64,000 bases of DNA from an uncultured virus (IMG/VR IMGVR_UViG_3300036045_000006) (IMGVR_UViG_3300036045_000006); one strand, 5' to 3'. Counted from the stretch's first letter, positions 7,949 to 59,132 are shown. Notes: a model not told the origin generated them from the letters alone. A program made the numbers and translations.

Positions 7949-7970
7949 GAACATCTGCTCTAGTATAACA
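7949..7970 (-). promoter_or_regulatory. Extended -10 promoter with LexA-type box upstream of portal
   Basis: TGtTATACT on the - strand (-10 at 7962-7967); GAACATCTGCTC at 7949-7960 (1 mismatch to GAAC-N4-GTTC). Confidence 0.6.
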
Positions 7971-7996
7971 CAATTGCGGCAGGATCAAGATCGCGT

Positions 7997-9421
7997 TTAG
8001 CGACCCTTGACCTTAGCCTGAAACATCACGCTCATGCTCTGGATGGCAAACGTCGCCCGGTTGGCCAGCGCCCACGCATCGGCGCAGTCGTCCATCTGAC
8101 CCGACGGCGCGCGCAGGCTCGACCCCTCAAGCGATAGAAGCTGCTCATACAGCGTATCGGTATGAATGACCGTGTTGCCATCGCGCAGCGCTTCAGCCGC
8201 CGCATCGTATAACAGTGTTTTCCCCTTGCTGTTGCTGAGCCATCCCGGCTTGTCGTCATAGCCATCGGCCAGCAGCAGGCGGGTATTGTCCTGAAGCCAG
8301 GCAATCACCGCATGACCGTGATTGTTGCGCTCGACCAGGATGGTCGCCTCGTTGTAAAACTCCGCCAGCAGCTGAATATATCCGGCAAACACCCCCGGCT
8401 CGAACTTGCCCGCCAGGAGTGCCACCTCCTCGCCGGTGAGCGTGTCCAGCACCACCGCCGCGCTGTCGTCGGACGTCGGATTGCCTTCGGCCGGATCGGC
8501 GCCCAGCGCGTAGGTGCGGCCGTGTTCCGGCAGCGCATACACCCGCAGGCCGGGGATCGCAGGCCCGGCATATTCAAGAGAAAGTCTCGGCTCGTAGCAC
8601 GTCATCACCCACGTCGGCGCGAAGCGTTTATCCAGCGCGCGCGGTGCGAGCGCCTCTTCGACCGTGGCCGGATACTGCTCGTAGACATCGTCCATCGATC
8701 CGGTGCGCGCCAGGATGTCGGATGCGATCGCTTTGTACCAGACTTCATCGCGTTCCGGTCGAACGTACCACGGCAGGAAAATACCCGTCCAGCCATTTTC
8801 CTGTTTCACCGCGCCACGAAAAATCCGTTTGAACTCGGACTGCGGCTTACTCTTGTCCACACGAGAGATCAGGATCAGCTTGCCACCAGCGTCGATGGTG
8901 GGCTTAACGCTGCGCATCAGGCGGTTGAGATCGGGCACGAGATCGGCCTCATCGACCATCACGATGGTGGCGGTATACGAGTCGCCGCCGGTGGTGGGAA
9001 AAGCCCGCGCCGTCGATCCATTGGAGAGGGCGAACTGCTTGGCGGCATCGACCGTCACCTGTCGGGCTTTCATCCAGTCCGGTAGACGCCGGTACATGCC
9101 GCGCAGGCGTTCGTCGGAGAGCATATAGATCGCCTCGTCATCGCGCTTGCTGAAGATCAGCGCGGTGGCGATCGGCGCGTAGATCATCTGCCAGGCAATA
9201 TAACCCAGCACCAGCCAGGACATCCCCAGCTGGCGCGCCTTCACGACCACCGTCTGCTGGTTCTCGTGCATAGCCTGAAGCGCGTCAATCTGCTCCGGCC
9301 ACAGCGTAAACGGAATCCAATCGAGCCGCTGCGGATCATAAATCTGCGTGTACGTCTCGATAAAATAACGCGGCGACGCGGCGCAGCGCAGCAGTTCATC
9401 TCTAATCCACGGGTCGCTCAT
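7997..9421 (-). CDS. terL: Terminase large subunit
   Basis: Walker A VVVKARQLGMSW, Walker B IVMVDEAD, RNase H-like nuclease motifs LGADPAEG...DDSA and MDDCADA. Confidence 0.95.
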   Translation of the reverse strand: MSDPWIRDELLRCAASPRYFIETYTQIYDPQRLDWIPFTLWPEQIDALQAMHENQQTVVVKARQLGMSWLVLGYIAWQMIYAPIATALIFSKRDDEAIYMLSDERLRGMYRRLPDWMKARQVTVDAAKQFALSNGSTARAFPTTGGDSYTATIVMVDEADLVPDLNRLMRSVKPTIDAGGKLILISRVDKSKPQSEFKRIFRGAVKQENGWTGIFLPWYVRPERDEVWYKAIASDILARTGSMDDVYEQYPATVEEALAPRALDKRFAPTWVMTCYEPRLSLEYAGPAIPGLRVYALPEHGRTYALGADPAEGNPTSDDSAAVVLDTLTGEEVALLAGKFEPGVFAGYIQLLAEFYNEATILVERNNHGHAVIAWLQDNTRLLLADGYDDKPGWLSNSKGKTLLYDAAAEALRDGNTVIHTDTLYEQLLSLEGSSLRAPSGQMDDCADAWALANRATFAIQSMSVMFQAKVKGR

Positions 9422-10016
9422 CGCCGCTCCAGCGCAACCCGTCCTCACCAGCATCCGGCTGAAGACCTTTGGCTTCCAGCTTACGCATCTGCTGAAAGAC
9501 CGCTGTCAGATCGTCGACCGAAGGCGCATTCAGGCTCTCGCCTTTACTCTGAATGTCGGTGATCTCGGTCGGATCGCCATACTCTAACCGCGACTCTTTC
9601 ATAACCAGCGACGCGGCATAGGCCAGATGCTGCATATCGCGCGGCGTCAGGGCCTTCTTCGGGTCTTTCTCGACTTTAGAGACCTCGGCCAGCAGGCGCA
9701 TAAACAGCGCGGTCAGCGCATCAATGGTGGTGGATCGCATACTGCGCGCCGCCTCACGCTTGCTGTCGGCCATCAGCTGCGCCTCGCTGCGCAGGGCCTC
9801 GTCGTAGGCCGTCGCCCGTTCGCGCCAACGGAACTTCTGAGCATATTCACGGTATGACGGCGGCACGCTGCTCAGTGGCGGATCGCCCACTTTGGCGCGT
9901 TCCTCGTTGTAAATCGCATTCAGTGACCGGCTCGATCCCATCAGCCTGAAGCGGTCGAACCGATCGAACCACATATCGGGTTCGTCCGGCAGTTGATCCC
10001 AGGGACGTTTGCTCAT
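9402..10016 (-). CDS. terS: Terminase small subunit (putative)
   Basis: Overlaps the TerL start; helical, with PWDQLPDE...FRWRERATAYD N-terminus typical of TerS-position proteins. Confidence 0.7.
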   Translation of the reverse strand: MSKRPWDQLPDEPDMWFDRFDRFRLMGSSRSLNAIYNEERAKVGDPPLSSVPPSYREYAQKFRWRERATAYDEALRSEAQLMADSKREAARSMRSTTIDALTALFMRLLAEVSKVEKDPKKALTPRDMQHLAYAASLVMKESRLEYGDPTEITDIQSKGESLNAPSVDDLTAVFQQMRKLEAKGLQPDAGEDGLRWSGDERPVD

Positions 10017-11353
10017 GCGGAATCCTCTCTAATCGGTTCAAGACCCAGTTGTGATAGACGATCCAGCGTCGCGGCCAGATGCGCCGGGACAAGTTCGATG
10101 CCGTATCCGGTGCGGCCCATCTGCTCGCACGCGACGATCGTCGTGCCGCTGCCCGCAAACGGATCTAGGATGCCATCGCCCGGCGACGTAAATGTGGACA
10201 AGGCCCAGACCGGCAGTTCATCCGGCATGGTGGCCGCGATCAGTTCCGGGTACGGATTGTGACGCTGCGGCGCAATATCCACCACATTGGATACCGTGCC
10301 GCGAAACGGTTTGTTGCCAAACGCGCGGGACGGATGCTCGCGGCGGCTGAACATCAGCAGGTATTCATAATCGCTGTTCATCACCCGCTCAGCCATGGCC
10401 GGCTGTGACGCGCCTTTGTCCCAGATGGCGATGTCGGCCAGCCGGTGGCGAAAGGCGAACAAGTATTCCACCAGCGCGATTTTATTACCCGCCAGCATCT
10501 GGAGGTTGACGAGCGCCCAGTCGCTCACGTCCAGCGCGCATTGGGTAAAGGCCGACAGCAGACCCAGATAATCACTCACATTAAGATCGTCGCCCGCGCC
10601 CAGCACATACTTACTGTCGGTAGTATGGCTGTTATTCGACAACGTTTCGCTCGTCCCGGCATTGTAAGGCGGCGAGGTAAAGGTCAGCGTTACCCGATCA
10701 CGGCCCAGCAGACGCGCGTAGGCCGCTGGCTCGGTCGCATCGGCGCAGATCAGCCGGTGCGTCTGGCCGTGCTTCCCGGCGACCGACCACACATCCCCCG
10801 GCTGTACCGGAAAGGCCGCGAGCAGTTCGGCGGCCCGGCGCTGGCTGGTTTCGCCCGGCGTCTGCTGGGCGCGCTGCGCGTCCGCGGCCTGGTCGACCAA
10901 CCGCCGCAGGTCGTCAATGGCCTGATCATTCAGGCCCGTGGCTGCGATCAGCGTCGGATCGATCCGAATCTCGTCCAGATGCGCCAGCAGTTTCTCATGC
11001 TCGATACTGGCCCGGCGCGCATACTCGTTATCGGCGATGGCAAAGGCCGTCGCTTCGAGAGGCGACAGATGCGCGATGTCCACACACTCGACATACCAGT
11101 CATCATCACGCACCACGACATTGGCGGGCGGCCATGCCAGGTCTATCTCTGGACGCGGCCCCTGCGCTTTGACCAGACGCAGGGCCAGGACGCTGTGATT
11201 GCCACCGCGTACCTGGCCTTCACGCCACACACGCGGCGCATTGTTGAACCCGTACCGGCGGATGCTGCGGGCAATCCCTTCGACATCGCCCCGGTTGTAA
11301 TTGTCATCCCAAATCCGTAACGCGGATAAGGGCCGATAGGAGTCTTGTGTCAT
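10013..11353 (-). CDS. ParB-like N-terminal domain fused to a beta-class DNA amino-methyltransferase (probably m4C)
   Basis: N-terminal IARSIRRYGFNN...GGNH...AFAIADN; motif IV FTSPPY precedes motif I ILDPFAGSGTT. Confidence 0.9.
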   Translation of the reverse strand: MTQDSYRPLSALRIWDDNYNRGDVEGIARSIRRYGFNNAPRVWREGQVRGGNHSVLALRLVKAQGPRPEIDLAWPPANVVVRDDDWYVECVDIAHLSPLEATAFAIADNEYARRASIEHEKLLAHLDEIRIDPTLIAATGLNDQAIDDLRRLVDQAADAQRAQQTPGETSQRRAAELLAAFPVQPGDVWSVAGKHGQTHRLICADATEPAAYARLLGRDRVTLTFTSPPYNAGTSETLSNNSHTTDSKYVLGAGDDLNVSDYLGLLSAFTQCALDVSDWALVNLQMLAGNKIALVEYLFAFRHRLADIAIWDKGASQPAMAERVMNSDYEYLLMFSRREHPSRAFGNKPFRGTVSNVVDIAPQRHNPYPELIAATMPDELPVWALSTFTSPGDGILDPFAGSGTTIVACEQMGRTGYGIELVPAHLAATLDRLSQLGLEPIREDSA

Positions 11354-11937
11354 CGCATGGCCTCAACGCTGCTATCATTCAGGCTCTATTATAGAGAACA
11401 TTTGACCTATATCCAAAGCGATTAAAATATCCCAAAATCATTTCGTATAATTCGCATTGTGCGAAGTAATCCGTATACACATGGTTTATAACGTTGTGTT
11501 ACGCAAATCAGCGAATGAAGAAACGTCCCAGAACGCGCAAATTTCGATAGCGCGTAGGATGATACGTCTTGCAAAAATAAATCGCGTGGCGCGTTTCCTG
11601 GCGCGTCGGGTGCGATACTTTGTGATCAATCAACGCATTTTACTAGAACATAAATTCTGTAAAAACCGAACGTCCGTTCTTGCAGGAATCGCGTCCTGGC
11701 GCGTCCTGGCTCATGAACAGATGTTCTAAAGAATTGCCCAATCAGGTAAGCGCATTCTCTATAGAATTTGTGAGCGTGTTGACTGTTCGGTTATAGAACT
11801 CGGCCTCGTCAGAAAGCGTTAACATAATGGGTTATCTCAATGAATTGTCAACGATCTGAGGGGAAGTACAACCTCGATTAACTCTCACATCGGCCTTAAT
11901 GCTTTTCCTCGCATAAACTATAGTAATATGGTACAAT
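11354..11937. promoter_or_regulatory. AT-rich divergent control region between late (packaging) and early genes, with four LexA-type boxes
   Basis: TATAAT on - at 11388-11393. Boxes at 11396-11407 (GAACATTTGACC, 2 mismatches), 11646-11657 (GAACATAAATTC), 11668-11679 (GAACGTCCGTTC, perfect) and 11715-11726 (GAACAGATGTTC, perfect). Confidence 0.75.
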
Positions 11938-12584: not shown

Positions 12585-12883
12585 ACAAAATGGGGGCGGG
12601 GCCTCATCTGCCCTGCCCCCTTGATGGACAACGAAACAACAACCGCATCAGATCGTATCCGCCGGGGCTGGCAGCCGTCAACCCCGGCTTTAACGATCAG
12701 CACGCAGAAGGTCGCGTGCGAAAACCGGCCCATCCAGCCGCGCGCATCCGCGTTATTCCGCATATCTTTCAAATCGCATTACACCTCACAGCCTGAAATC
12801 CTGTGCTTATCCCAGACCCGCCGCCCCGAAATCCCGCGCTATCGCACACACGTTCCAAAATCCCGCCGTCGCGCGCCGTTGGC

Positions 12884-12912
12884 TTGACTTATCTATAGTA
12901 ATATAGTACACT
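12884..12912 (+). promoter_or_regulatory. Sigma70 promoter with CTATAG-AATAT operator (family A)
   Basis: TTGACT-17-TACACT; the spacer motif is shared with 11918-11937 and 14380-14399. Confidence 0.8.
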
Positions 12913-14370: not shown

Positions 14371-14399
14371 TTGACACATCTATAGCAATATGCTATACT
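14371..14399 (+). promoter_or_regulatory. Sigma70 promoter with palindromic operator TATAGCA-ATA-TGCTATA (family A)
   Basis: TTGACA 14371-14376, 17-nt spacer, TATACT 14394-14399. Confidence 0.85.
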
Positions 14400-19503: not shown

Positions 19504-19521
19504 GAACAGGTGTGCTAAAAT
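19504..19521 (+). promoter_or_regulatory. LexA-type box abutting a -10 element
   Basis: GAACAGGTGTGC 19504-19515, then TAAAAT 19516-19521. Confidence 0.6.
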
Positions 19522-30361: not shown

Positions 30362-30950
30362 TTGACGATCTCCATTCTACAATCTTCATTGTAAGTAGTC
30401 AACTCTACGCTTCTACCCGTAGAGCAGCTTAGAGGAACGCACAGATACGATGATACTACAGCGCTATGACGCTGCAAAAAGGGGATCGTTTTTTGCGAGG
30501 TCATCGCATTATATGATCGATTAACGCATTTCAAACTATATTGTGCATAAAATCAAACTCGCTTTCCAAGAGAATTTACGACATTCATAATCTTATACAT
30601 GGAGACATAATATCGCTGTGACAAGATTGTGACCATTTGGTATTAATTCTGCCGATAATAAAAACGAAACTTGCATGAAAAGCGCTTACGTCTCTATAGA
30701 CTTTATGGTATATTTTCTCAAAATTAACTTAACGTTTTTCATAATGACTTAATAAATTGATGCGGATGGGGACATCCGACCTAGCAGGTCGGGGTACAGG
30801 CGAGGGGCACATCAGCAGGCGCCAGGTGGGACGATGTGCGGATGGGCGGCGCGGCAAGGAGGGCACACACACACAGGAGGTTGCAGACAATCCGCAATCG
30901 TTAGATCATCTGTTCTGGACAACTCTGGGGTGATAGAATCAAAGAGGTTG
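30362..30950. promoter_or_regulatory. Divergent control region between maintenance and replication operons
   Basis: AT-rich; TCTAC/GTAGA repeats at about 30376-30424; LexA-type box GATCATCTGTTC 30904-30915 upstream of extended -10 TGaTAGAAT 30931-30939. Confidence 0.6.
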
Positions 30951-43688: not shown

Positions 43689-43902
43689 CCCCCGAACAAC
43701 TCGCAATCCTCATCGCCGCGGTCGAGCCTGTCAGCCTGGCCGCGGTGCGGCTGCTGGGCACCGTGTACACCGTAGACGACGCTCGCAAAGCGACGGTTGA
43801 ACTGCTCGACTACGGCGAGCGGTGCGCAGACATGGCCAACCTGATGAGCAACCTGGCCGCCGTGCCTGTGATGGATCCCCGCATGGTCGAGGCGTTCGCG
43901 CT

Positions 43903-46772: not shown

Positions 46773-46779
46773 GAGACCT

Positions 46780-49551: not shown

Positions 49552-50040
49552 CTAGCCCTGTGGCTCGTCGTCATCGTTCCAGGAGATCGGCGTATCCGTC
49601 CGGGCAGGTGTCGATGCAGCCACGGGAGCAGGTGGCTGCTTCTGACGTTCCAGATACGCGAGGAACTCCTGATACTGGTCGCGCAGCTGCTGGCTGCGTT
49701 TATCGTCCAGTGTGCCCGGTGTGAGGCGCGTAAACTGCTGGTACAGGTCGAGCGCCGGATCGACGACCGGCATTAACGACGGAATAAGTTTTTCCATCTT
49801 GTCTGCCGGAATGCTGCTGTGCAGCAGCCATGCGACCAATGCCACCAGTCCGAACACGGCCAGGTCCGTCAGACGCAGCGGCTCCGCCTCTTCGTCAACC
49901 GTGACGACGATCGGGGCAGGGGATGGACTGACCGGCGCCGCGACCTCGGTCGCTTCAGCGGTGGCTTCCTGGGCAAAGGCCAGGCCGGGGATGAGCAGAG
50001 CCAGCAGCACCAGCGCCAGCGCGAACAATAGTCGGTTCAT
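49552..50040 (-). CDS. Membrane protein with signal peptide (lysis-module position, holin-like)
   Basis: N-terminal signal ending AFA, second TM helix, TPGTLDD motif; RBS GGAGGA. Confidence 0.55.
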   Translation of the reverse strand: MNRLLFALALVLLALLIPGLAFAQEATAEATEVAAPVSPSPAPIVVTVDEEAEPLRLTDLAVFGLVALVAWLLHSSIPADKMEKLIPSLMPVVDPALDLYQQFTRLTPGTLDDKRSQQLRDQYQEFLAYLERQKQPPAPVAASTPARTDTPISWNDDDEPQG

Positions 50041-50049
50041 AGAGTCCTC

Positions 50050-50850
50050 CTAATCCAGAAAAAACTGACGGACAAACTCGATAATGCCTGGCAGGTTGAT
50101 ACTGAGTAGGGTCAGCAGACCGATCAGCAGGCCCACCAGCAGCGCCTCACCAAAACGAGTGTTCAGCAGAAACCCGCCCAGCAATGACCAGCGTCGCCGC
50201 CGCGCTTCCTGTTTGCGCTGTTCGGCACGCATAAACTCAAACACGGTCATGAGAAGTTCCCTCTGCTGAGCGATGTCGGCTTTCACTTCTTCCTTGCTGA
50301 GCGCAATGGCGGTGCGGATGCCAGGACGTGATTTATCGGTTGCGTCACCCTTAAATTCATCCTCAAATATCTTCAGGCGACCGTTGAAATTCTCGATCAT
50401 GGCGGCGGCTTGAATTTGATTATCTGTCAGTATTGTCAGCCGGTAGCGAATATCGCTTTCGATGTCGCCAATCCGGCGGGTGTGATCCCGCACCAGTTCA
50501 TCGCGGGCCTCGATGCTGTCATCGAGACCCGTTAACTGCGAACTGATGCCCTTGACTTTGACCTCAATCTGACCCAGCCCTTCGGCCAGCTGCTGTACTG
50601 ACGGATTCAGCGTTGCCAACTGCGTCTGGATCGCAGCGAATTTACTGACCACCGCTGCGACCTGTTCGTTTATGGCGTTGATCTGCTGGTCACGCTGATC
50701 CAATGCCGACCGCAGATCGGCCTGCGTCACAAAATGACGGCTGTCCAGAATGCGGTGAATCTGCGTGTCCATCTCTTCCGCAACGATGCGGCGAATATTC
50801 GCCAGCAGCGGTTCTTCGGACGACAGCGGCCCGGTATCCGGTACAGTCAC
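50050..50850 (-). CDS. Coiled-coil protein with C-terminal membrane anchor
   Basis: Long heptad region, RRRRW then hydrophobic helices; GTG 50850 overlaps the upstream stop. Confidence 0.6.
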   Translation of the reverse strand: MTVPDTGPLSSEEPLLANIRRIVAEEMDTQIHRILDSRHFVTQADLRSALDQRDQQINAINEQVAAVVSKFAAIQTQLATLNPSVQQLAEGLGQIEVKVKGISSQLTGLDDSIEARDELVRDHTRRIGDIESDIRYRLTILTDNQIQAAAMIENFNGRLKIFEDEFKGDATDKSRPGIRTAIALSKEEVKADIAQQRELLMTVFEFMRAEQRKQEARRRRWSLLGGFLLNTRFGEALLVGLLIGLLTLLSINLPGIIEFVRQFFLD

Positions 50851-51041
50851 AAGGTCTGCGCCTTCAGTTTCTGGTAGAGCGCTTCCACCAGATTGAGCCG
50901 CGTGCGCAGCATGGCGATCAGGTAATCCTTCTCGGCTTCCGTCAGTCGGTCGACCGTCATCAGCCTGAGCAGGCGGTAGAGCATCGTGAACGTCAGCGTT
51001 GCGAGCCACAGGCCTACGATGGAGTCCCACCGCCGCCACAC
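50847..51041 (-). CDS. Small membrane protein
   Basis: One TM helix followed by an amphipathic tail. Confidence 0.5.
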   Translation of the reverse strand: MWRRWDSIVGLWLATLTFTMLYRLLRLMTVDRLTEAEKDYLIAMLRTRLNLVEALYQKLKAQTL

Positions 51042-51044
51042 GGC

Positions 51045-51836
51045 CTAATGGCCCTGAAGTCCATCCGCCAGCGCGTTCGCCAGCAGCCGCAGCATACTCG
51101 CTGCTTCGGTCATCGAGCCGATGTTGTAAATGCCAAGAGTGCCCATCAGGTTTCCACGCCAGAGAATCGTGACGGTGATCTGCGGGTTCTCATCCGGTTC
51201 CGGTTCGGGGTCAGGGTCTGGCAGTGGATTGGGAGTTGGCTCTGGCAACGGATCGGGATCAAGTGCAGGTGTTGGCGCAGCGTTTTTCTTGAGGATCAGC
51301 GCCGGTGCGCCGTAACTGGGCGCGACCTTCTCGATCGTCACACGCAGCACATCCACAAAGCCGTCGTTGGATTTCCACAATGAGTCAAACATCAACCCAA
51401 AATCAATGATGACCGGCTCTGGCCCCACAACCTGGATCACTGCCAGCGATTCCTCGCCCTCGCTGTTGCGCGCGAACCGGGCGTCTGCTCCGGTGTGGCT
51501 GTAGCGCTGGCCCTCATGCGTGATTTCAAAGCCCCACCCCAGATCGGGGATCGGCCCGGCGGTCTGACGAGCAATCCGCGCCGCCAGCACATAACGGCCA
51601 GCAGGCAGGCTGATATTGCGCTGAAGATACCCAGCGCGCTCAAACTGCCGGTAAGCCACATGGAAGCGACTGCCGGACGGGGTCAGGTTGAACGCTTCCG
51701 GTGGCGGATTGTCCTCTGCCGCGTTGTCCTGCGTGATGATGTCCCATCCGGGTGGAAATGCCTGGTTACGCCCGAAGGGCGACTGCTCGCGTTCTACCCC
51801 GGCGAGCGTCGGGTTGGTGACAAAGGTCTCAGCCAT
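51045..51836 (-). CDS. Beta-sandwich (CBM-like) protein with Pro-rich linker; first gene of the lysis-position operon
   Basis: RBS AGGAG; NPTL...PPGW...AGYLQRNISLPAGRY; (PD/PE)n linker; no hydrolase motif recognised. Confidence 0.55.
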   Translation of the reverse strand: MAETFVTNPTLAGVEREQSPFGRNQAFPPGWDIITQDNAAEDNPPPEAFNLTPSGSRFHVAYRQFERAGYLQRNISLPAGRYVLAARIARQTAGPIPDLGWGFEITHEGQRYSHTGADARFARNSEGEESLAVIQVVGPEPVIIDFGLMFDSLWKSNDGFVDVLRVTIEKVAPSYGAPALILKKNAAPTPALDPDPLPEPTPNPLPDPDPEPEPDENPQITVTILWRGNLMGTLGIYNIGSMTEAASMLRLLANALADGLQGH

Positions 51837-51851
51837 TTTCTCCTGCTAACG

Positions 51852-51885
51852 GAACAGATGTTCCACTTACTCGTCTATTGTATCA
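51852..51885 (-). promoter_or_regulatory. Extended -10 promoter with perfect LexA-type box
   Basis: TGaTACAAT (51877-51885 on -); GAACAGATGTTC at 51852-51863, between promoter and RBS. Confidence 0.75.
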
Positions 51886-51891
51886 TTGACT

Positions 51892-52218
51892 TCAGACATG
51901 ATCCATCGATCCAAGGCTTGCAATCAGCGCGTTGATCTCACATTGCCACCAATATCCACGACCACCGGCGACGATGCGTCCATCATCAATACGATTCATT
52001 AAACAGAATTGACGCGACCATCGTTGACTGGCATTTTCCAGTCTGTGAAATTCTCCACTGATCAAACAACCGCCATCTCGAATGAGATAGACATCGGTTG
52101 TCACGAGTTCATATGGATACCTTCCATCACAAGTGTGCAATTGCCGATTGACTTCAATCGATATTAGCAATAGGCATAAACTGAGAAAGATCAGCACTAT
52201 CTTTGCGCAGCGAGACAT
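51892..52218 (-). CDS. Small AT-rich membrane-anchored Cys-containing protein
   Basis: N-terminal TM IVLIFLSLCLLLISI; lower GC than flanks. Confidence 0.45.
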   Translation of the reverse strand: MSRCAKIVLIFLSLCLLLISIEVNRQLHTCDGRYPYELVTTDVYLIRDGGCLISGEFHRLENASQRWSRQFCLMNRIDDGRIVAGGRGYWWQCEINALIASLGSMDHV

Positions 52219-53972
52219 GAACCACGCACCCGGACATTCAATTCGATAATTCCCTGAGATCCCCAAGCCTGGATCATAGATTGATTAATACCGACCTCTG
52301 CATTACGTTGACCACAGCGAAACTCAATTGAATGATCCCGGTAGATACTACCGGTTTGTTCAAACAAAATATCAGTAATGTCACATTCCACATTGATCGA
52401 CTGATTAACGCCACTTGCCCACGGCCCGCCAAGTCGATTTGTATATTCTATTCCGTTGATGAATAACCTGAGATCAGACGGATACTCCGTGTGAATATTG
52501 CAGCGCCAGTAACCCGCGACATAAGATATCCCAGGCGGCGGAACCTCGACAAATGATAAAAAGTTTGATGTGTTGTCCAATGGTCGCGTCTTAAATCTGA
52601 TCCTCACCCGATCAATTTCGGTGATCTCTTCGTCAATTTCTAACTTAAAGACAGCCCATTTGTGATCAGAAAAAGCAAAGTTCCCATCGTTCATAATGGT
52701 ATCTGTCCAGGTGTTCTCGCTCCATATAGCCGTGTTCTTCGGTTCGCGGTGGATCAGTCTTACATCCTCCATCGTCTGCACCACGGCGCTCATGGTGTCC
52801 TGGTGCGGACGATCCACGTTGCTGATCTCCAGATCCAGCGACAGCCCGTCTGGTGACAGACGCTCGCTTGCTGAGGTGATATAGAACATCCCGCTGACGG
52901 TCTCGTCAGCGAATACGTCGTCATATGCACTGCGTACATCGCCGTGATACCACAACCGGATCATGTCGCCGGTACGCACCGTCCTGGCGCACTTGGTGAC
53001 GGATACCCGGTAGGTGGTTTGTTCAACAGCGGCCCGTGCCATCCATTCCCTGCCAGCCTGCAAAAGCGCATTGGATGATCGTCGTTTGCCCTCGACGGAG
53101 TTGTTGATCTGCGTGATCTCTTTGAATGTGACAGCCATCTCCCGGCGTCCGTAGCGCGCAATGCTGGCCGCGTCCTCGATGTAATAGTAGGTCTTGCCGT
53201 CATCTTCCACGCGGCTTTTCACGTCGGGGTCGTCGCTGTATTTCAACGTCAGCGCTGCTGTACCCTCCCCATTGCCAAACACAAACGCCGCATTGGTCAC
53301 GTCTTCGCTGTCGGCCAAAATTTGCATCGAGGTGATAAACGCCACGTCCGCATTATCGTTCTGGTATGGCACAGCAGAATTGATGTTCATGAGTGTGAGA
53401 TTGATGTCGGTGGCAAACCGGCCCATCTCAAGCACCGGCGCGCCCAGCATCGGCTGGGGCAGCTTCTCTCGAAGGTGCAGCCCTAACTGCTTCGCCATCG
53501 TCTGAAGAATTTTCAGGCTGGATGCGCCGGTGTAACGCCCGTCGATCGTGACGTTTTCCAGACCCGCTTCCAGTTCCACCCGCCAGCCAGCGCGGGCCGC
53601 GACCTGGTTGGCCGCAACGTTAAGGAGCGTATCGTCAAAGACTGCAAAGCTCACGACATGTTTCAGATCGGCCAGCGCATCCGTGCCTGTGCCGCTGCGC
53701 GTCTTGCCGCCGGTGGAGACATTCTTGCGCAGCTTCTGAATAGTGCCCCGGCAGAATTCGCGGTACTGGCCGTTCTGCTCGACCTTAATCTGCACGCGCG
53801 TTTCGGTTGTAAAAAACCGCATCGTGCGCTCATCCCCGACCGGCACGTCGATCTGAATCGTGCCCGCACCGTCCAGCTTGCGGTTGACGCTGGCCGAGAG
53901 AATCTTGATCGGCCCTTCCGCGTCCGGGTGCTTCACCCATCCAGGTGTATATACATCCGCCAGGATATTCAT
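52197..53972 (-). CDS. Tail tip/baseplate hub (Tal-like) protein
   Basis: VNRKLDGAGTIQI N-terminus, YIEDAASIARYGRRE, VRTGDMIRL...ITS; siphovirus tail position. Confidence 0.75.
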   Translation of the reverse strand: MNILADVYTPGWVKHPDAEGPIKILSASVNRKLDGAGTIQIDVPVGDERTMRFFTTETRVQIKVEQNGQYREFCRGTIQKLRKNVSTGGKTRSGTGTDALADLKHVVSFAVFDDTLLNVAANQVAARAGWRVELEAGLENVTIDGRYTGASSLKILQTMAKQLGLHLREKLPQPMLGAPVLEMGRFATDINLTLMNINSAVPYQNDNADVAFITSMQILADSEDVTNAAFVFGNGEGTAALTLKYSDDPDVKSRVEDDGKTYYYIEDAASIARYGRREMAVTFKEITQINNSVEGKRRSSNALLQAGREWMARAAVEQTTYRVSVTKCARTVRTGDMIRLWYHGDVRSAYDDVFADETVSGMFYITSASERLSPDGLSLDLEISNVDRPHQDTMSAVVQTMEDVRLIHREPKNTAIWSENTWTDTIMNDGNFAFSDHKWAVFKLEIDEEITEIDRVRIRFKTRPLDNTSNFLSFVEVPPPGISYVAGYWRCNIHTEYPSDLRLFINGIEYTNRLGGPWASGVNQSINVECDITDILFEQTGSIYRDHSIEFRCGQRNAEVGINQSMIQAWGSQGIIELNVRVRGSCLAAQR

Positions 53973-55156
53973 CAGTCGCTTTCCACCATCATGGTGCGGA
54001 TCAATATGGATTTGGCAACTGCCGCCTGTGTATAGGCGATCACCACCAGCGACAGGTTATCCGTCGCGGCGGGCAGGGTGGCGGACAGCGACGTCTCGGT
54101 ACTGTCGTTGACGCTAAAATAAGCCTGCCCCATACTGGCGTCGTACCGCACGCGCAGCAGGTATCTCGTGTTGGTTGCAATCGATCCAATCGGCGCGCCC
54201 AGGGTTTGCGCCACGCCGGTGCAGGTGACTGGCCGCCAGCCGGCGTCGCCAGCCGTTGTCGAATAACGGAAACCGAGGTAAGGATTTGACAACGTATCGC
54301 TGTTGGCAACGGTTGTATTAAACAGGCCGACATAAATGCGAACTGCTGAAATGTCCGCCCCGGTGCGAATCACAGCTTCGAATGTAGGGCTGTGACCAAT
54401 GCGAACCGCTTGCAGCGTATTCAGCACAAATGCCAGGCCGCCAGCCGATGCAGGGGTTGCATAGGCTGTGTAGTGGCTGTCGGACTGATGAGATGATGTG
54501 GCTGTGCCTCCTATCGTTGCGCCCTCCGCACCCAGAGGGACGACACCGGCATTGGACGACTGATACCCCCACCACCGGCGTCGCGCGAAACCCGGCAGCA
54601 CGTCCAGCCGCCGCGTGCTGCCGACCGTCACCAGGCTGCGCGACGGAACGACGAGATCAGTGATGCTGGTATTTGCGGCCGGGATTTGCGTCACTAGGCG
54701 GAACGACATGTCCTGCGCGATGCCGACCACATTCGCAAGTCCTGCGAATTTGTAAAGCGCCAGGACTTTGTTCGTGTCGTTGAGGACATAATCCTGCTGG
54801 TTTTGCAGGTAGATATTGCCCCCGACGGCCAGGTGCTTCACGGTGATAACGCGCGCATTATTCTTGATGCGAATGTAGATCACCTGGCCGTCAACCATGC
54901 TGTTGATGGCAACCAGATCGTCGGATCCGACCAGGCCAAATGTGTCCAGAATGTGCTGGCTCAGCGTCGCGGTAAACGCGCCGTTGACATCCAGCGTGAC
55001 TTCGGTCCCGGCCTGGGACGGCCCGTTGACCAGGCGCCTCGTCGGGATAACGCCCGTCTGCATGTTCTTGATCGCAGTTTCCAGACCCGCAAAATTGGTA
55101 TTGAGCGGGTCGTTATCGGCGATCCCATCCGGGATTACGGTATAGTAGTCAGGCAT
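53972..55156 (-). CDS. Minor tail protein / putative receptor-binding protein
   Basis: Between Dit and hub; lectin-like C-terminal beta-sandwich. Confidence 0.65.
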   Translation of the reverse strand: MPDYYTVIPDGIADNDPLNTNFAGLETAIKNMQTGVIPTRRLVNGPSQAGTEVTLDVNGAFTATLSQHILDTFGLVGSDDLVAINSMVDGQVIYIRIKNNARVITVKHLAVGGNIYLQNQQDYVLNDTNKVLALYKFAGLANVVGIAQDMSFRLVTQIPAANTSITDLVVPSRSLVTVGSTRRLDVLPGFARRRWWGYQSSNAGVVPLGAEGATIGGTATSSHQSDSHYTAYATPASAGGLAFVLNTLQAVRIGHSPTFEAVIRTGADISAVRIYVGLFNTTVANSDTLSNPYLGFRYSTTAGDAGWRPVTCTGVAQTLGAPIGSIATNTRYLLRVRYDASMGQAYFSVNDSTETSLSATLPAATDNLSLVVIAYTQAAVAKSILIRTMMVESD

Positions 55157-55159
55157 TTT

Positions 55160-56023
55160 TTAACTCCATGCGTCATAAAAACCGACGCGGATTGCAGCGG
55201 GTGCGGCCAGCGTGCCATTCAGCTGAAGGGTGTTTGCGCCCGGCTCCAGGCGCAGGTATCCGGTTCCAGCAATGACATCGGTCAGGTGGTAGGCGCTAAC
55301 CAGTCCAGTACTGGTGAACTGAGTGATACTCAGATCCCAGCCGTTGATGATCAATTTATCCCCGGCCGCCAGGCTGCTGCGCCAGAAGAAGCCATCGACC
55401 TCACGTCCGTTTTCTATGCGCGCGATCCGAATGTTGCTGGACGTACCGGTCGCCGTCAGTGTCAGATGAATCGGCGTATCGGTATCGCCGTTGTTGGTCA
55501 GCGTCCAGGTATCGCCGTCGCCTCCCGTGGTGCTGAGTTGCGGTGCGGCCCAGTTGTTTTCACCCCACAGCGTGCCGTCGCCCCACTCCCACCCTGATCG
55601 GCTGTACCAGCGGGGATCCTCCGCGCTGAAATTGATGCGCACCGGCTGGATCAGATCGGTGTGTTTGTGCAACTGCTCGTTCATGCCGATATTGGCGACC
55701 TTGCACACGCAGAAGCGCGCCGGACGGGTGGCGTGCGCGGGCTTCATCCAGAGCGTGCCGCGTCCCCAACGTTCCATACGTTTCACATCGCGGCGGAGAT
55801 CGTCCATGCCGTCGCGTAAATACGCCCGCAGATTAAAGTCCAGCGAGATCGATCCGATTTCTTTGCGATAAGGCCGATCCTGTTCCTGATCCACGCCGCC
55901 ATCCATGCCAACGGCGCGCTGCATCCGCTGAAGCACCTGCGTGAAATTGGTCGTCAGCGCTTCCTGATAGATCGGAAACGTGTACTGGTTGCCCTTTGCG
56001 CGGAAATACAGAATCTGCGTCAT
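55160..56023 (-). CDS. Distal tail protein (Dit)
   Basis: Follows TMP; FSAEDPRWY, TNNGDTDTP, LRLEPGANTL...FYDAW. Confidence 0.85.
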   Translation of the reverse strand: MTQILYFRAKGNQYTFPIYQEALTTNFTQVLQRMQRAVGMDGGVDQEQDRPYRKEIGSISLDFNLRAYLRDGMDDLRRDVKRMERWGRGTLWMKPAHATRPARFCVCKVANIGMNEQLHKHTDLIQPVRINFSAEDPRWYSRSGWEWGDGTLWGENNWAAPQLSTTGGDGDTWTLTNNGDTDTPIHLTLTATGTSSNIRIARIENGREVDGFFWRSSLAAGDKLIINGWDLSITQFTSTGLVSAYHLTDVIAGTGYLRLEPGANTLQLNGTLAAPAAIRVGFYDAWS

Positions 56024-59000
56024 CCCTGCGCTCTCCTTAACTGCTCGATTTGATCCCACGCGCCGCGTCCGGCCGCCTGACCTTCCTCATAGGAGTTGGC
56101 GTAGACGTTCATCGAACCCACCAACGGCGACTGCTGCTGGCTGCCCGCTGCAATGGCGCTCAACACCCGGTCAAAGTTGGGAATAAACTGACCGTTTGTC
56201 GAGGGAACAAAGAGTTCGGGCTGTGCCCCAGCCCCAATCATATACGCCTGACCGGCCCATCCCGGACCGCCGCTGTCTCTGAAGATGCCAGAGATACCGC
56301 GCCCGACATCACGCAGGAAACCGCCCGTGTTGTCTATGCCGCGCAGCACGCCCGTTCCGCTCCGGAACGGACTGGCCGCTTCAACCGCATTGATCGCGCC
56401 GCCGACGGTGCTGCTAATTCCATTCACGACATCACCCACTGTGCCTGCCACCCGCTGCACCACCTCGACGATCGACTCGATCAGGTCGATCACGGGCTGA
56501 ATAATATTGGTACTGACAAAATTGAAAACCGCCGACAGCGAATCCCGGAACAGATTAATGCCGACAGACACCGCTGACCAGATACCAGCGAGGATGTCGA
56601 TCAGTCCTTGGATTGCCGGTGTGATGACCCCGGTGATCACGCCTTCGATGATCGGCCAGCCGGTGGTGGTGAACCAATCGATCAGACCCTGGATGACCGG
56701 GCTGACCAGGTTCCAGATGTCCTGCAGGATTCCGATGAAGGTCTGAATAATGGGAATAGCGACGTTGTTAATAAAGTCCAGCGCCAGCGGCAGTCCGGTC
56801 GTAATAAACCAGTCGACCAGGAAGGTGATGATCGGACCGACCACCTCCCAGATGCCGCGCAGGACGTTGATGAACTGGCCGATCGCGGGAATGACCGTGC
56901 CGGAAATAAAGTTGAGGATCGCCGGCAGCGCGTCCTGGAGGAACCAGGTAGCCAGTGCTGCTAACGCGGGGGCGACGACCGCCCACAGTCCGGCCAGCGT
57001 GTTGATGACCGTCTGAATAAGGGGCAGCAGTTGATCCCGGATCACCGCCACGATCGCGGGCACGGCTTCGGTCAGGAACCAGTTGGCGATCTGCACCAGC
57101 GCGGGAGCGACCACCGCCCAGGCATTCGCCAGGAACTGGAAGAAGGATTGAATCGCGGGGATGACTGTCCCGGTGATGAACGCGGCGATCGCGGGCAGCG
57201 CATCGACCACGAACCAGGTATACATCGCTTCCAGCCCAGGCCGGATCACCGTCTCCCAGGCCGTCCCCAGCCACTCGAAGAAACTGCGGATAGCAGGCAG
57301 CGCCACGTCGATTACAAAATTTACAATCGCGGGCAGACCTTCAGACACAAACCAGCTGACCAGTGCCTGAAAGCCAGGGATCACGATTTGTGTGATGAAC
57401 GTCGCCAATGTCTCAAAGACGCCGCGCACAGTGTTGACCACCCGTTGCGTCGCCTGATATAAGCTCTGCACGACTGCGATCGCCCGATCGCGTGCCATGC
57501 CGAAGCTGACCAGCACGCCCTCCAGCGTGCTTTGCATGGTCTCGTCCATTGTGCCTTCGCCAAAAATTCCTAAGATGGCTTCATGCAATCCGAAATCTCT
57601 GAGGTAGGCGAAAAACGTGTCAATCGCAAATACAAGCCGCTCGAATCCCCTGGATAACGTGTCAATCACCGGCTGCACCAGGTCTCTGATGCCGCCCAGG
57701 TTAGATTGAAATGCAGCGTACAATCCTGCTATCGCGCCGACGATCAGCCCGATCGGACTGAACAGCAAACCAAAAGCCGCGCCCAGCCCGCCTATGGCTG
57801 TGCCCACCGCCGTAACGAACCCGCCGATACCGATCAGGATCGGACCCAGCACGCCCAGCGCCGCGACGACCACGCCGATCGTGCGCGCCAGGCCGGGGTT
57901 CTCCTGCACCCATCCCGTGATGGCGCGGATGACTGGACGCACCGCGCCAACAATATCGTTCAGCACGGGCAGCATGGCCTGACCAATCTCAATCGCCAGT
58001 CCGCTGATGCTGGACTTCAGCAGGTCAAACTGCGCGGCGGCGCTCTCCATCTGAATTTCGCGGGCCGCCGTCGTCGCGCCGTCGATGCCATCAACGTAAG
58101 TTTCAGAAAATTCTGTGAAATTCTCCGAGGCCAGCGCTGTGACGCCGCGCAGGGCTTCCACCGAGCCGACCATCGGCGCGATCGCGTCCTGACCGAATTC
58201 ACCGGCCAGCGCCTGGTACGCGCCGACCAGCCCCAGCTGCTCGACTGCCGCGCGTCCACTGGCGAAGCCCAGGCGCTGCAACCCGGCCCGCATTCGCTCG
58301 TTGGGGTTCAGCAGCGCGGACATCATCGCGCCTAACTGCGTGGTGGCCTGAGATGCGGTATTGCCCTGCGTGGTGAGGTAGGCCGCCGATGCGCCCAAAT
58401 CCTCAAGCCTGATCCCCATGGAATTGGCCAGCCCGGTAACCTGCGGCAGCGCGGAGGCGAACTGATCCATCGTGCCGACACCCATCCCAACCGTTCGGGT
58501 CAGCACGTCGGAAGCAAACGCTGCCTGATCCGCGCTGTACCCGTAACTGTTCATGATGGAGATCATGGCGTTGGTGGCGCCGCCGAGGTTGGCGTTACCC
58601 GCTTCGGCCAGCGCGATCGCGTTGGTCAGGATGTCCATGTGGGTGGAAGCATCCGCGACGCCGCCGACCACATCGTACATCGCGTCCGCGACCGACTGAG
58701 GCCCGAAACGACTTTCCTCGCCCATCCGTTGCAGTTCGTTGGACATGGCCTGCATTTCGGACAGCGGACGGCCCATCACCGCGGCAATGTTGGCGATCGA
58801 TTCCTCGAAGTTCACCGCGCTTCGAGTGGCTACGCCCAGACCCGCCGCGAACGGCGTAAACGTCTGGGTCAGCTGCGATCCCAACCCACTTAACTGCTGA
58901 CCGACACCGCGCAGACCGTCGCCAATCCCGGACAGGCCAGCGGAAAACGCGCGCCGGGCTTCGTCCATCCCCGCGCGTACACCGCTGGCATCAATGACCA

Positions 59001-59046
59001 CACGCCCGTAGGCGGTTCCGAGATTCGCGCCGCTGTCCATCGACAT
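56020..59046 (-). CDS. Tape measure protein (1008 aa)
   Basis: NLGTAYGRVVID start, TP901-like core, periodic Trp/Pro amphipathic repeats. Confidence 0.95.
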   Translation of the reverse strand: MSMDSGANLGTAYGRVVIDASGVRAGMDEARRAFSAGLSGIGDGLRGVGQQLSGLGSQLTQTFTPFAAGLGVATRSAVNFEESIANIAAVMGRPLSEMQAMSNELQRMGEESRFGPQSVADAMYDVVGGVADASTHMDILTNAIALAEAGNANLGGATNAMISIMNSYGYSADQAAFASDVLTRTVGMGVGTMDQFASALPQVTGLANSMGIRLEDLGASAAYLTTQGNTASQATTQLGAMMSALLNPNERMRAGLQRLGFASGRAAVEQLGLVGAYQALAGEFGQDAIAPMVGSVEALRGVTALASENFTEFSETYVDGIDGATTAAREIQMESAAAQFDLLKSSISGLAIEIGQAMLPVLNDIVGAVRPVIRAITGWVQENPGLARTIGVVVAALGVLGPILIGIGGFVTAVGTAIGGLGAAFGLLFSPIGLIVGAIAGLYAAFQSNLGGIRDLVQPVIDTLSRGFERLVFAIDTFFAYLRDFGLHEAILGIFGEGTMDETMQSTLEGVLVSFGMARDRAIAVVQSLYQATQRVVNTVRGVFETLATFITQIVIPGFQALVSWFVSEGLPAIVNFVIDVALPAIRSFFEWLGTAWETVIRPGLEAMYTWFVVDALPAIAAFITGTVIPAIQSFFQFLANAWAVVAPALVQIANWFLTEAVPAIVAVIRDQLLPLIQTVINTLAGLWAVVAPALAALATWFLQDALPAILNFISGTVIPAIGQFINVLRGIWEVVGPIITFLVDWFITTGLPLALDFINNVAIPIIQTFIGILQDIWNLVSPVIQGLIDWFTTTGWPIIEGVITGVITPAIQGLIDILAGIWSAVSVGINLFRDSLSAVFNFVSTNIIQPVIDLIESIVEVVQRVAGTVGDVVNGISSTVGGAINAVEAASPFRSGTGVLRGIDNTGGFLRDVGRGISGIFRDSGGPGWAGQAYMIGAGAQPELFVPSTNGQFIPNFDRVLSAIAAGSQQQSPLVGSMNVYANSYEEGQAAGRGAWDQIEQLRRAQG

Positions 59047-59063
59047 CGGCCAGTATCCTTAAA

Positions 59064-59098
59064 TAAAAAAGCGCCAAGAGTTGACACACTCTTGGCGC
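59064..59098 (-). terminator. Intrinsic terminator directly upstream of TMP
   Basis: 11-bp stem GCGCCAAGAGT/ACTCTTGGCGC (59071-59081/59088-59098) followed by T6 on the - strand. Confidence 0.75.
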
Positions 59099-59114
59099 GC
59101 TTCAGGTTATCTCA

Positions 59115-59132
59115 ATTATAGCACAGTCGTTC
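59115..59132 (-). promoter_or_regulatory. LexA-type box abutting a -10 element
   Basis: On the - strand GAACGACTGTGC then TATAAT; same layout as 19504-19521. Confidence 0.6.

Follow-up and report, generated by a model that had tools for sequence, protein, structure and literature searches.

Candidate LexA operators on several promoters of a tailed phage with a probable Chloroflexota host

LexA-type boxes in the phage genome

We analyzed a stretch of 64,000 nucleotides from an uncultured virus (hereafter, the window) and found boxes of the GAAC-N4-GTTC class on several of its predicted promoters. These boxes are quite likely operators of the Gram-positive/Chloroflexota class, bound by LexA, the SOS repressor of the host. 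With an operator on at least five phage promoters, DNA damage would probably switch on the replication, packaging, tail, and lysis-position genes directly. The source phage, represented by a contig of ~67 kb, is tailed and siphovirus-like; ~3.4 kb of the contig lies beyond the window.

All ten boxes listed in the initial annotation are present with the mismatch counts given there (Table 1). Three are perfect (11668, 11715, and 51852), six carry one mismatch (7949, 11646, 12844, 19504, 30904, and 59121), and the site at 11396, GAACATTTGACC, carries two. The AGAT/ATCT spacer is indeed common to four of them (7949, 11715, 30904, and 51852). The assigned gene contexts, namely the terminase operon, portal, recT operon, tape-measure gene (TMP), and terminal three-gene cassette, were supported by PHROGs and Pfam, and the reported closeness to a -10 element holds for 7949, 19504, 30904, 51852, and 59121. 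The sites differ in strength: eight score 13.4–18.0 bits, compared with a median of 17.1 bits for the lexA sites from which the scoring matrix was built, but 12844 and 11396 are weak.

Table 1. Boxes, promoter elements, and genes discussed in the text (window coordinates)
Feature	Position	Strand	Remarks
LexA-type box GAACATCTGCTC	7949..7960	.	16.0 bits; starts 1 nt downstream of -10 hexamer
Extended -10 TGTTATACT	7962..7970	-	Between TerL stop (7997) and portal
TerL	7997-9454	-	PHROGs/Pfam; late operon, among first genes
TerS	9402-10016	-	PHROGs/Pfam; late operon, among first genes
ParB-methylase	10013-11353	-	PHROGs/Pfam; late operon, among first genes
Proximal promoter, ParB-methylase/TerS/TerL operon	11388..11416	-	Predicted; TGGATA-16-TATAAT or TTGGAT-17-TATAAT
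Weak box GGTCAAATGTTC (minus strand)	11396-11407	-	7.8 bits; in spacer of promoter 11388..11416
Putative distal leftward promoter	11637..11665	-	-35 TTTTTA 11665-11660; -10 TAAAAT 11642-11637
LexA-type box GAACATAAATTC	11646..11657	.	15.1 bits
Perfect LexA-type box GAACGTCCGTTC	11668..11679	.	17.0 bits; 22 bp from box 11646
Perfect LexA-type box GAACAGATGTTC	11715..11726	.	18.0 bits; best score in window
Doubtful box GCACACACGTTC	12844..12855	.	12.4 bits; inside ORF 12621-12887
Box GAACAGGTGTGC	19504-19515 (element 19504..19521)	+	15.6 bits; fused to extended -10
Extended -10 TGCTAAAAT	19513-19521	+	Fused to box 19504
ParB	26609-27712	-	PHROGs/Pfam; leftward module without LexA-type box
ParA	27709-28644	-	PHROGs/Pfam; leftward module without LexA-type box
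Box GATCATCTGTTC	30904-15 (element 30904..30939)	+	13.4 bits; covers -35 region
Extended -10 promoter TGATAGAAT	30931-39	+	Predicted to drive ORF 30954-31190, RecT, replication O-like gene, DnaB
RecT	31187-32581	+	Behind promoter 30931-39, after ORF 30954-31190
Replication O-like gene and DnaB		+	Same operon, after RecT
Terminal three-gene cassette	49552..51836	-	Behind box 51852; lysis position
Perfect box GAACAGATGTTC	51852-63 (element 51852..51885)	-	16.1 bits; 13 nt downstream of extended -10
Extended -10 TGATACAAT	51885-51877	-	Upstream of box 51852
Terminator-like hairpin	59071..59098	-	11 pairs, then T-run; between box-bearing promoter and TMP start (59046)
Box GAACGACTGTGC (minus strand), site 59121	in element 59115..59132	-	14.4 bits; upstream of tape-measure gene
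Extended -10 TGCTATAAT	59123-59115	-	Fused to box 59121

Most ORFs in the window are orphans (PHROGs/Pfam); an Rfam scan of the window returned no family, and a tRNA search found none. The phage encodes ParA and ParB, and no integrase family was detected among the window ORFs by PHROGs/Pfam. On the basis of this ParA/ParB module, which lacks a box, we propose a plasmid-like prophage, and the phage would be temperate. The terminal cassette encodes three proteins: one of 263 aa with no known function, a coiled-coil protein of 329 aa whose C-terminus bears a membrane segment, and one of 162 aa in which a signal peptide is combined with a membrane segment; no endolysin was identified in this cassette.

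Statistics of the motif

Over the whole window, three perfect boxes stand against 0.94 expected, a number reached in 4 of 100 shuffles. Allowing up to one mismatch gives 29 boxes where 24.0 are expected, and 15 of 100 shuffles reach 29. Because the count of the loose pattern is not above chance, most one-mismatch matches are chance, as the initial annotation had warned. GAAC-N4-GTTC is intergenic in all three occurrences and ties for second place (third as listed) among 1486 4-mer dyads; taken alone, this result is non-significant once corrected for the 1486 dyads.

The initial annotation had proposed comparing intergenic with coding DNA by a weight matrix, and such a scan brings out the listed sites. 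The matrix was derived from 45 boxes in Chloroflexota lexA promoters; its core columns are circular by construction, while the flank and spacer columns are independent. Ranks 1–7 in the window are 11715, 11668, 51852, 7949, 19504, 11646, and 59121, all of them on the original list, and 30904, 12844, and 11396 follow at ranks 9, 11, and 27. Seven matches reach 14 bits where 0.5 are expected, a number attained in none of 300 composition-preserving block shuffles. Six of these seven are intergenic on a mechanical longest-ORF map (binomial p 1e-7) and all seven on a start-adjusted map, in a window that is 5% intergenic and 95% coding; coding DNA contributes only rank 8 and ranks from 10 onward. 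A match at 50153 (13.8 bits) was rejected as an operator and treated as chance, because it lies in a coding stretch for a membrane segment with no nearby -10. The 12-mer GAACAGATGTTC, with up to two mismatches, has 14 matches (including two reverse-strand self-matches) against 4.0 expected, and none of 100 shuffles reaches 14. The AGAT/ATCT spacer of the four sites exceeds the prediction of the lexA-derived matrix, and this sharing could reflect an extra phage-specific factor.

Promoter context

Boxes scoring 13 bits or more lie no farther than 30 nt from five of the ten extended -10 elements in the window (7949, 19504, 30904, 51852, and 59121), at about -42 to +18 of the predicted promoter. 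The placement varies among the -35 region, the spacer, the start site, and the early transcribed region. The five boxed promoters precede the portal gene, a leaderless ORF, the recT/replication operon, the tape-measure gene, and the lysis-position cassette, and the terminase operon is preceded by boxes 11646, 11668, and 11715 together with the weak 11396. The remaining five extended -10 promoters lack a box, and the plus-strand module at 12–24 kb uses a second promoter motif (CTATAG class), also box-free. LexA control is thus not genome-wide. The proposal that host LexA governs many lytic modules is supported insofar as the boxes look like operators on several promoters, but half of the extended -10 promoters would escape it.

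Box 7949 spans the predicted transcription start 5' of the portal gene; as the longest portal ORF starts at 7988, the site may fall within the first portal codons rather than in a short intergenic gap. The 17-nt spacer of the putative distal promoter contains box 11646, and a resemblance to the layout of host lexA promoters suggests that this promoter points leftward. The small ORFs behind the 11.6-kb cluster have TTG starts alone, without support, and no convincing small ORF was found there. Box 12844 lies ~24–29 nt upstream of the -35 of a promoter at 12879-12912. Behind box 19504, an in-frame ATG at 19527 suggests a small leaderless ORF ending at 19697. Gene 51836-51045 (minus strand) has its ATG 16 nt downstream of box 51852. 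At 19504 and 59121, the box overlaps the TG of the extended -10, with a GTTC-to-GTGC change. Given its position between the promoter at 59121 and the TMP start, the hairpin may act as an attenuator or terminate a very short RNA.

Host phylum, host operators, and relatives

The matches of its proteins indicate that the phage probably infects Chloroflexota. Of 80 TerL-relative loci, 65 are labelled Chloroflexota and 13 are labelled as other phyla, with best TerL identities of ~60%. Among the DnaB matches listed, all five that carry an organism name and rank above the Aneurinibacillus match (P0207) are from Chloroflexota. A lexA gene was found in 104 of 121 sampled Chloroflexota genomes, a tally that includes the unpublished genome G043, none of whose loci was used. 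Upstream of Chloroflexota lexA, a perfect box is present in 20 of 33 regions and a box with at most one mismatch in 29 of 33; these counts leave out L099 and L116 (contig ends without upstream DNA) and the weaker PF01726 paralogue matches L087, L089, L090, and L091. The recA promoters carry a box in four of five genomes, leaving out L128, which has an internal stop. The assignment of the motif to the LexA class of Chloroflexota is supported by these counts. In these lexA promoters, TTGACA is followed after 2–3 nt by the box and after another 2–3 nt by TATAAT, often with a second box. For Planctomycetota, the alternative host phylum, the motif was absent from all five lexA promoters, which show a different pattern, and a Planctomycetota-type operator was rejected for the window. 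The box also serves as a host-prediction clue, fitting Chloroflexota-type and not Planctomycetota-type lexA promoters.

The box also recurs in relatives. Across the 80 TerL-relative loci, 20 of 35 matches of at least 14 bits fall within 1.5 kb before TerL, in ~10% of the DNA, and 22 of 74 loci have such a box within 3 kb upstream of TerL. A relative typically carries one or two boxes, mainly before terS-terL, placed in the promoter spacer or adjoining the -10, including the GTGC-TATA variant of 19504 and 59121. The weak box 11396 occupies the same spacer position as perfect boxes before terS-terL in relatives. When 84 window proteins were compared with the 80 loci by tblastn, wide sharing was confined to TerL (80 loci) and TerS (17 loci), so the design is conserved rather than orthologous sites. 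A look for relatives in IMG/VR yielded a 5.8-kb fragment (L001), which is identical, and nothing else; RecT, gene 51045-51836, and the ParB-methylase have none there. Genome contigs, scanned with TerL as the single query protein, gave no match. Contigs from a second sample are uninformative on site conservation because they are nearly identical (2 differences in 20 kb).

The one or two boxes of most relatives, the chance-level count of boxes with at most one mismatch over the whole window, and the overlap of 19504 and 59121 with the extended -10 TG would fit a narrower reading, in which only the 11646-11726 cluster, perhaps with 51852, functions as a single SOS switch and the other one-mismatch sites are by-products of promoter sequence (e.g., GTGC-TAWAAT, which makes an extended -10). 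We consider this reading unlikely. Matrix ranks 4–7 and 9 all lie at promoters, with coding DNA supplying only 8 and 10 onward, and host lexA promoters (L083, L098), as well as the DNA before TerL in relatives (L054, L073), likewise contain the GTGC/GCAC variant.

Search for a phage-encoded regulator

Pfam and PHROGs revealed no CI, LexA, S24, or HTH repressor family among the 90 window ORFs, and none of these ORFs matched the LexA homologue family PF01726 at E ≤1e-3. Among 33 ORFs near the switch regions, scanned against Pfam at permissive settings, the sole match was a weak ribbon-helix-helix one (E 0.005; 29933-30136). Looking up the 281-aa protein at 29091-29936 in the Atlas gave nothing informative.

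These results weigh on a second alternative, that a phage-encoded regulator, either a repressor or a complex requiring a co-factor, recognizes these boxes, which would resemble the LexA box by coincidence or mimicry; control would then be phage-autonomous and immunity-like. The AGAT/ATCT spacer is kept in four sites despite differing flanks, the mostly orphan ORFs could hide a DNA-binding protein, and GIL01 needs the small phage protein gp7 with LexA, according to PMC4551915. However, apart from the ribbon-helix-helix match, no LexA_DNA_bind, S24, or HTH repressor was detected in the 90 ORFs, and the box, its flank and spacer preferences, and its layout recur on Chloroflexota lexA and recA. 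In several Chloroflexota classes, the box also stands on TerL clusters that are unrelated. The whole pattern matches a conserved host factor, not a phage repressor that diversifies. Control by a phage regulator is accordingly improbable. A product of chance in AT-rich intergenic DNA is very hard to credit: the whole-window counts barely exceed shuffles and the intergenic dyad result does not survive correction, but no block shuffle matches the matrix counts, the intergenic concentration has p ≤1e-7, and no shuffle reaches the 14 near-matches to GAACAGATGTTC.

Proposed mechanism

We infer LexA binding at the boxes from their sequence and placement. The operator consensus would be roughly A/C-GAAC-R-N2-Y-GTTC-G/T, embedded in sigma-70-type phage promoters, and a LexA dimer bound at about -42 to +18 would block RNA polymerase. 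In the undamaged cell, LexA would silence the early recT/replication promoter through box 30904, the start of the late operon through 11646, 11668, 11715, and the weak 11396, the internal late promoters of the portal (7949), tape-measure gene (59121), and terminal cassette (51852), and the small leaderless ORF through 19504. The ParA/ParB module, having no box, would remain active. Upon DNA damage, RecA-stimulated self-cleavage of LexA would free all boxed promoters together. With early and late promoters released at once, temporal order would require some further factor. LexA boxes on internal late promoters bear on lytic timing without a repressor cascade. Several lytic modules are boxed, as originally proposed, but the claim that host LexA replaces a CI cascade is not established.

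Comparison with known systems

The host SOS operators of Chloroflexota, on the autoregulated lexA and the recA promoters, belong to one class with the Cheo box of B. subtilis and M. tuberculosis (PMC3323433). In GIL01, a Bacillus thuringiensis tectivirus, lysogeny is kept by host LexA with gp7 (PMC4551915), and host LexA represses both the early P1 and the late P3 promoters (PMC6182141). The initial annotation correctly cited GIL01 as the precedent. In this type of system, gp7 is a small co-repressor that stabilises LexA on DNA, and gp6 is a phage LexA homologue that activates the late promoter. The present phage most likely represents GIL01-like logic in a new phage type, the strategy having so far been studied mainly in the unrelated GIL01. 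Both have GAAC-N4-GTTC-class boxes inside phage promoters, both have early (here 30904) and late (here 11396-11726, 7949, 59121, and 51852) promoters boxed. A dedicated CI-type repressor is not evident (here among 90 window ORFs, most of them orphans), and the present prophage, with ParA and ParB and no integrase family, may likewise be extrachromosomal. Unlike the 15-kb tectivirus of Bacillus, this phage is ~67 kb, tailed, and probably hosted by Chloroflexota; it has at least five separate boxed promoters, including internal late-operon ones, and no gp6-like LexA homologue among its 90 window ORFs. The genome offers a concrete wiring diagram, with seven to eight predicted operators on named promoters, and would extend GIL01-style use of host LexA from a small Bacillus tectivirus to a large tailed phage in a distant phylum. 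In the titles and abstract openings of the literature retrieved, we found no experimental study of how Chloroflexota phages regulate their genes, no report of LexA boxes upstream of phage terminase operons, and none of phage-like clusters under SOS control in this phylum.

The phage boxes share with the Chloroflexota lexA/recA operators the core, the purine/pyrimidine spacer edges, the A/C and G/T flanks, and the placement between the -35 and the -10, with another box following the -10. They differ in standing on phage promoters, several of them fused to an extended -10 through the GTTC-to-GTGC change. LexA-controlled antirepressor switches are known from coliphage 186 (Tum), N15 (AntC), and the Gifsy phages, which combine one LexA-controlled small gene with a conventional repressor. 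There, as would be the case here, a LexA box and not repressor cleavage conveys the SOS signal to the phage, whereas the boxes of the present phage sit directly on structural, replication, and lysis-position promoters.

A broader scheme is possible, although doubtful as a whole: the phage would have no repressor of its own; host LexA, perhaps with a small AGAT-reading phage factor, would silence a ParAB-partitioned plasmid prophage through at least five promoters; chromosomal TerS-TerL-portal-capsid clusters of Chloroflexota would be domesticated from such phages; and direct SOS wiring of virion genes would be the common phage control of the phylum. Three such chromosomal clusters with a LexA-box promoter were found in Chloroflexota (L041, L023, and L036). 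They resemble the window in their TerL and TerS families and in the LexA-box promoter directly before the packaging genes. The clusters span ~9–10 kb between housekeeping flanks, with no tail, replication, or partition genes detected, whereas the window represents a complete phage genome with many boxes. The comparison links free phages to SOS-controlled, phage-derived packaging/capsid clusters of Chloroflexota chromosomes.

Genome Organization and the Level of Chance

Annotation of 90 ORFs using PHROGs and Pfam identified the window as a complete siphovirus-like phage with a G+C content of ~60%. The TerL cluster of the phage lies on a contig of 67,463 bp, ~3.4 kb of which falls outside the window. 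A nearly identical copy was found in a second sample; the source samples are sediments. The late genes occupy two blocks on the minus strand (1-11353 and 49552-63939). The early module (table) also contains a trio of neighboring genes encoding prokaryotic E2 family D, ThiF/E1-like, and Mom-like proteins (44621-46772), which looks like a DNA-modification or conjugation-like set.

The initial annotation listed ten GAAC-N4-GTTC boxes, and every coordinate was correct upon rechecking. Across the whole window, the loose pattern occurred at the chance level (29 matches vs 24.0 expected; 15 of 100 shuffles reached 29), and the number of perfect boxes was only mildly surprising (3 vs 0.94 expected; 4 of 100 shuffles reached 3). 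Each of the three perfect boxes is intergenic, and GAAC-N4-GTTC tied for second (listed third) among 1486 dyads tested. The 12-mer GAACAGATGTTC, allowing up to two mismatches, yielded 14 matches, two of them self-matches on the opposite strand, against 4.0 expected, with none of 100 shuffles reaching 14.

Boxes ranked by the host-type matrix, and gene modules of the phage
Feature	Position	Strand	Rank; score (bits)	Location or content	Source
Box 11715	11715		1; 18.0	intergenic	
Box 11668	11668		2; 17.0	intergenic	
Box 51852	51852		3; 16.1	intergenic	
Box 7949	7949		4; 16.0	intergenic on adjusted map	
Box 19504	19504		5; 15.6	intergenic	
Box 11646	11646		6; 15.1	intergenic	
Box 59121	59121		7; 14.4	intergenic	
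Site 50153	50153		8; 13.8	coding, membrane segment	
Box 30904	30904		9; 13.4	intergenic on adjusted map	
Box 12844	12844		11; 12.4	within ORF 12621-12887	
Box 11396	11396		27; 7.8	intergenic	
ParB-methylase	10013-11353	minus		late block 1-11353	PHROGs/Pfam
TerS	9402-10016	minus		late block 1-11353	PHROGs/Pfam
TerL	7997-9454	minus		late block 1-11353	PHROGs/Pfam
Portal	6468-7988	minus		late block 1-11353	PHROGs/Pfam
Beta-helix protein, 1622 aa	within 1-11353	minus			PHROGs/Pfam
Head-morphogenesis gene	within 1-11353	minus			PHROGs/Pfam
Capsid-side genes	within 49552-63939	minus			PHROGs/Pfam
Tape measure gene	56020-59046	minus		late block 49552-63939	
Dit and further tail genes	within 49552-63939	minus			PHROGs/Pfam
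Terminal three-gene cassette	49552-51836	minus		late block 49552-63939	
Module with AAA_5 ATPase and MazG	12-24 kb	plus		mostly unknown genes	
Early module	30954-49505	plus		RecT, replication O-like protein, DnaB, methylase, E2/ThiF/Mom-like genes, exonuclease	
Leftward module with ParA and ParB	23894-30534	minus			PHROGs/Pfam

Probable Host Phylum and Its LexA Box

The phage TerL lacks close relatives: its best match other than itself is 61% identical. A profile of 32 TerL sequences, searched against species-representative genomes, retrieved 80 loci, of which 65 were labeled Chloroflexota (spanning Anaerolineae, Caldilineae, Chloroflexia, Ardenticatenaceae, and Aggregatilineales), 13 carried other labels (mostly Gemmataceae/Planctomycetota), and two were unlabeled. 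In the DnaB match table, the five organism-named matches above P0207, an Aneurinibacillus row, were all Chloroflexota (33-37% identity). The host is probably a member of the Chloroflexota, an assignment at the phylum level only.

The GAAC-N4-GTTC motif class has been demonstrated for Dehalococcoides. We detected lexA in all five genomes carrying TerL-relative loci and in 104 of 121 sampled Chloroflexota genomes, a tally that includes the unpublished genome G043, no locus of which entered the promoter analysis. Within 220 bp upstream of lexA (n = 33), a perfect box was present in 20 regions, and 29 had a box with no more than one mismatch; this set of regions excludes two loci at contig ends and four weaker matches to paralogues. 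The promoters share a layout of TTGACA, 2-3 nt, box, 2-3 nt, and TATAAT; a second box frequently follows the -10 element within a few bases. Furthermore, recA promoters in four of five genomes carried a box scoring 14 bits or more. The motif class is also assigned to B. subtilis and M. tuberculosis (PMC3323433).

None of the five Planctomycetota lexA promoters contained GAAC-N4-GTTC. Four of them (L129-L131 and L133, not L132) showed TGTAC, ~20 nt including a TATA-like stretch, and GTTCA, which is possibly the Planctomycetota LexA operator.

Host-Type Matrix Scan of the Window

From 45 lexA-promoter boxes of Chloroflexota, we built a symmetrized 20-nt matrix, in which the core columns are circular by selection and the flank and spacer columns are independent. 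The window contained seven matches of at least 14 bits, compared with 0.5 expected, and none of 300 block shuffles reached seven. The intergenic enrichment for which the initial annotation had proposed such a scan was borne out: six of the seven lie in the 5.1% of intergenic DNA on a mechanical longest-ORF map (p ~1e-7), and all seven are intergenic on a start-adjusted map. The hand scan behind that annotation had overlooked no notable site.

These observations suggest that the window boxes are, fairly probably, operators of the host LexA. That only a core subset of them is functional seems unlikely, and use of the same sites by a phage factor is slightly less likely still. Among the 90 ORFs, PHROGs and Pfam revealed no member of the integrase, CI, LexA, or S24 families. 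A chance origin, in keeping with the loose-pattern count and at odds with the matrix shuffles, is very improbable.

Boxes at Predicted Promoters

All promoters described here are predicted, with the extended -10 element defined as TGnTAnnnT. These elements are concentrated outside genes (9 of 27 in the 5.5% of sequence that is intergenic). Of ten such elements, five lie no more than 30 nt from a box scoring 13 bits or higher; the other five have none, the best score there being 7.8. Box 7949, ahead of the portal gene, begins 1 nt past the -10 element and spans the predicted start site. At 19504 and 59121, box and -10 element are fused through a GTTC-to-GTGC change, which creates the TG motif. 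The former precedes a small, probably leaderless ORF with its ATG at 19527, and the latter precedes the tape measure gene. Box 30904 covers the -35 region ahead of ORF 30954-31190, RecT, and the replication genes, and box 51852 lies at about +7 to +18, 16 nt upstream of the terminal-cassette ATG.

At the start of the late operon, ParB-methylase is directly preceded by a -35/-10 promoter with the weak box 11396 in its spacer, and three strong boxes lie ~250 bp upstream of this promoter. Read on the minus strand, boxes 11668/11646 correspond to the host layout in the series perfect box, GG, TTTTTA, CA, box, TAG, and TAAAAT, with a spacer of 17 nt; we infer a minus-strand orientation for this putative distal promoter. 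The ParA/ParB module has no LexA-type box.

If the boxes are host LexA operators, early, packaging, tail, and lysis-position transcription would be directly SOS-inducible, and the partition module would remain on while the LexA-type promoters are repressed.

Two features adjoin these sites. At 59047-59132, a strong terminator-like hairpin (11 pairs and a T-run, 59098-59071) follows the box-bearing extended -10 promoter within ~10 nt and lies just upstream of the tape measure start codon; it might act as an attenuator that sets the dosage of tail genes, or the region might yield a ~45-nt RNA. A low-GC (~44%) stretch separating the tail genes from box 51852 (51892-52218, minus strand) contains an ORF that, from an internal ATG, encodes ~108 aa, including several cysteines and a hydrophobic, signal-like segment at the N terminus. 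This possible moron has an extended -10-like element (52161-52169) inside the ORF, downstream of the internal ATG.

Boxes in TerL Relatives

The window and its relatives have only TerL (80 of 80 loci) and TerS (17 of 80) in common; thus, no orthologous box can be traced, yet the box design recurs. Across 81 loci, including an identical 5.8-kb IMG/VR fragment (L001), we found 31 perfect boxes in 1.08 Mb, compared with 12.3 expected by composition. Of 35 matrix matches at or above 14 bits, 20 are located in the 1.5 kb preceding TerL (~10% of the DNA), and among the 74 loci whose upstream DNA was long enough, 22 show a match no more than 3 kb upstream of TerL. These boxes occupy the spacer of TTGACA/TATACT promoters or abut TATTCT or TAAATT -10 elements, and the GAAC-N4-GTGC-TATA variant occurs in relatives L054 and L073. 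Members of this TerL family are repeatedly accompanied by a LexA-type box ahead of the packaging operon. In the ~0.97 Mb of the relatives outside the zone upstream of TerL, only 15 matches occur; the window is distinct in having many more boxes at other promoters.

In three Chloroflexota MAGs (L041:9503-18257, L023:4652-15008, and L036:8905-19453), a LexA-box promoter heads a compact ~9-10 kb cluster in the order TerS, TerL, portal, protease/major-capsid fusion, and two to four unknown genes; L023 and L036 also contain an ECF sigma factor. The clusters are bordered on both sides by housekeeping genes, and L023 and locus L076 have the same upstream neighbor, a transketolase-like gene. We detected no genes for tail, integrase, or replication functions within the three clusters, which resemble SOS-controlled, head-only phage derivatives fixed in the chromosome.

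Comparison with GIL01 and Other Motifs

In GIL01, a Bacillus thuringiensis tectivirus, published passages describe repression of the early P1 and late P3 promoters by the host LexA together with the small phage protein gp7 (PMC6182141; PMC4551915). The window phage would likewise have both early and late promoters repressed by LexA. It is not a strict member of the GIL01 system: no homologue of gp6, the phage LexA homologue, was found among the 90 ORFs, and phage type and probable host phylum differ. The proposal in the initial annotation that LexA replaces a CI cascade is unproven. That no repressor was recognizable among orphan ORFs carries little weight, boxes are missing from half of the predicted promoters, and the 12-24 kb module carries a different conserved promoter motif.

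This box-free motif, CTATAGTAATATRGTACA, lies upstream of genes in that plus-strand module at 11918-11935, 12893-12910, and 14380-14397 (two exact copies and one with three mismatches; 3 vs 0.03 expected, and 0 of 100 shuffles reached 3). It points to a distinct class of promoters, possibly recognized by a phage factor. Additionally, the 574-bp regulatory region contains the GC-rich TCCTGGCGCGTC at 11596-11607 and 11692-11711, interspersed with its LexA-type boxes and in one case arranged as the tandem GCGTCCTGGC-GCGTCCTGGC; this motif may be a packaging signal or the site of a second protein.
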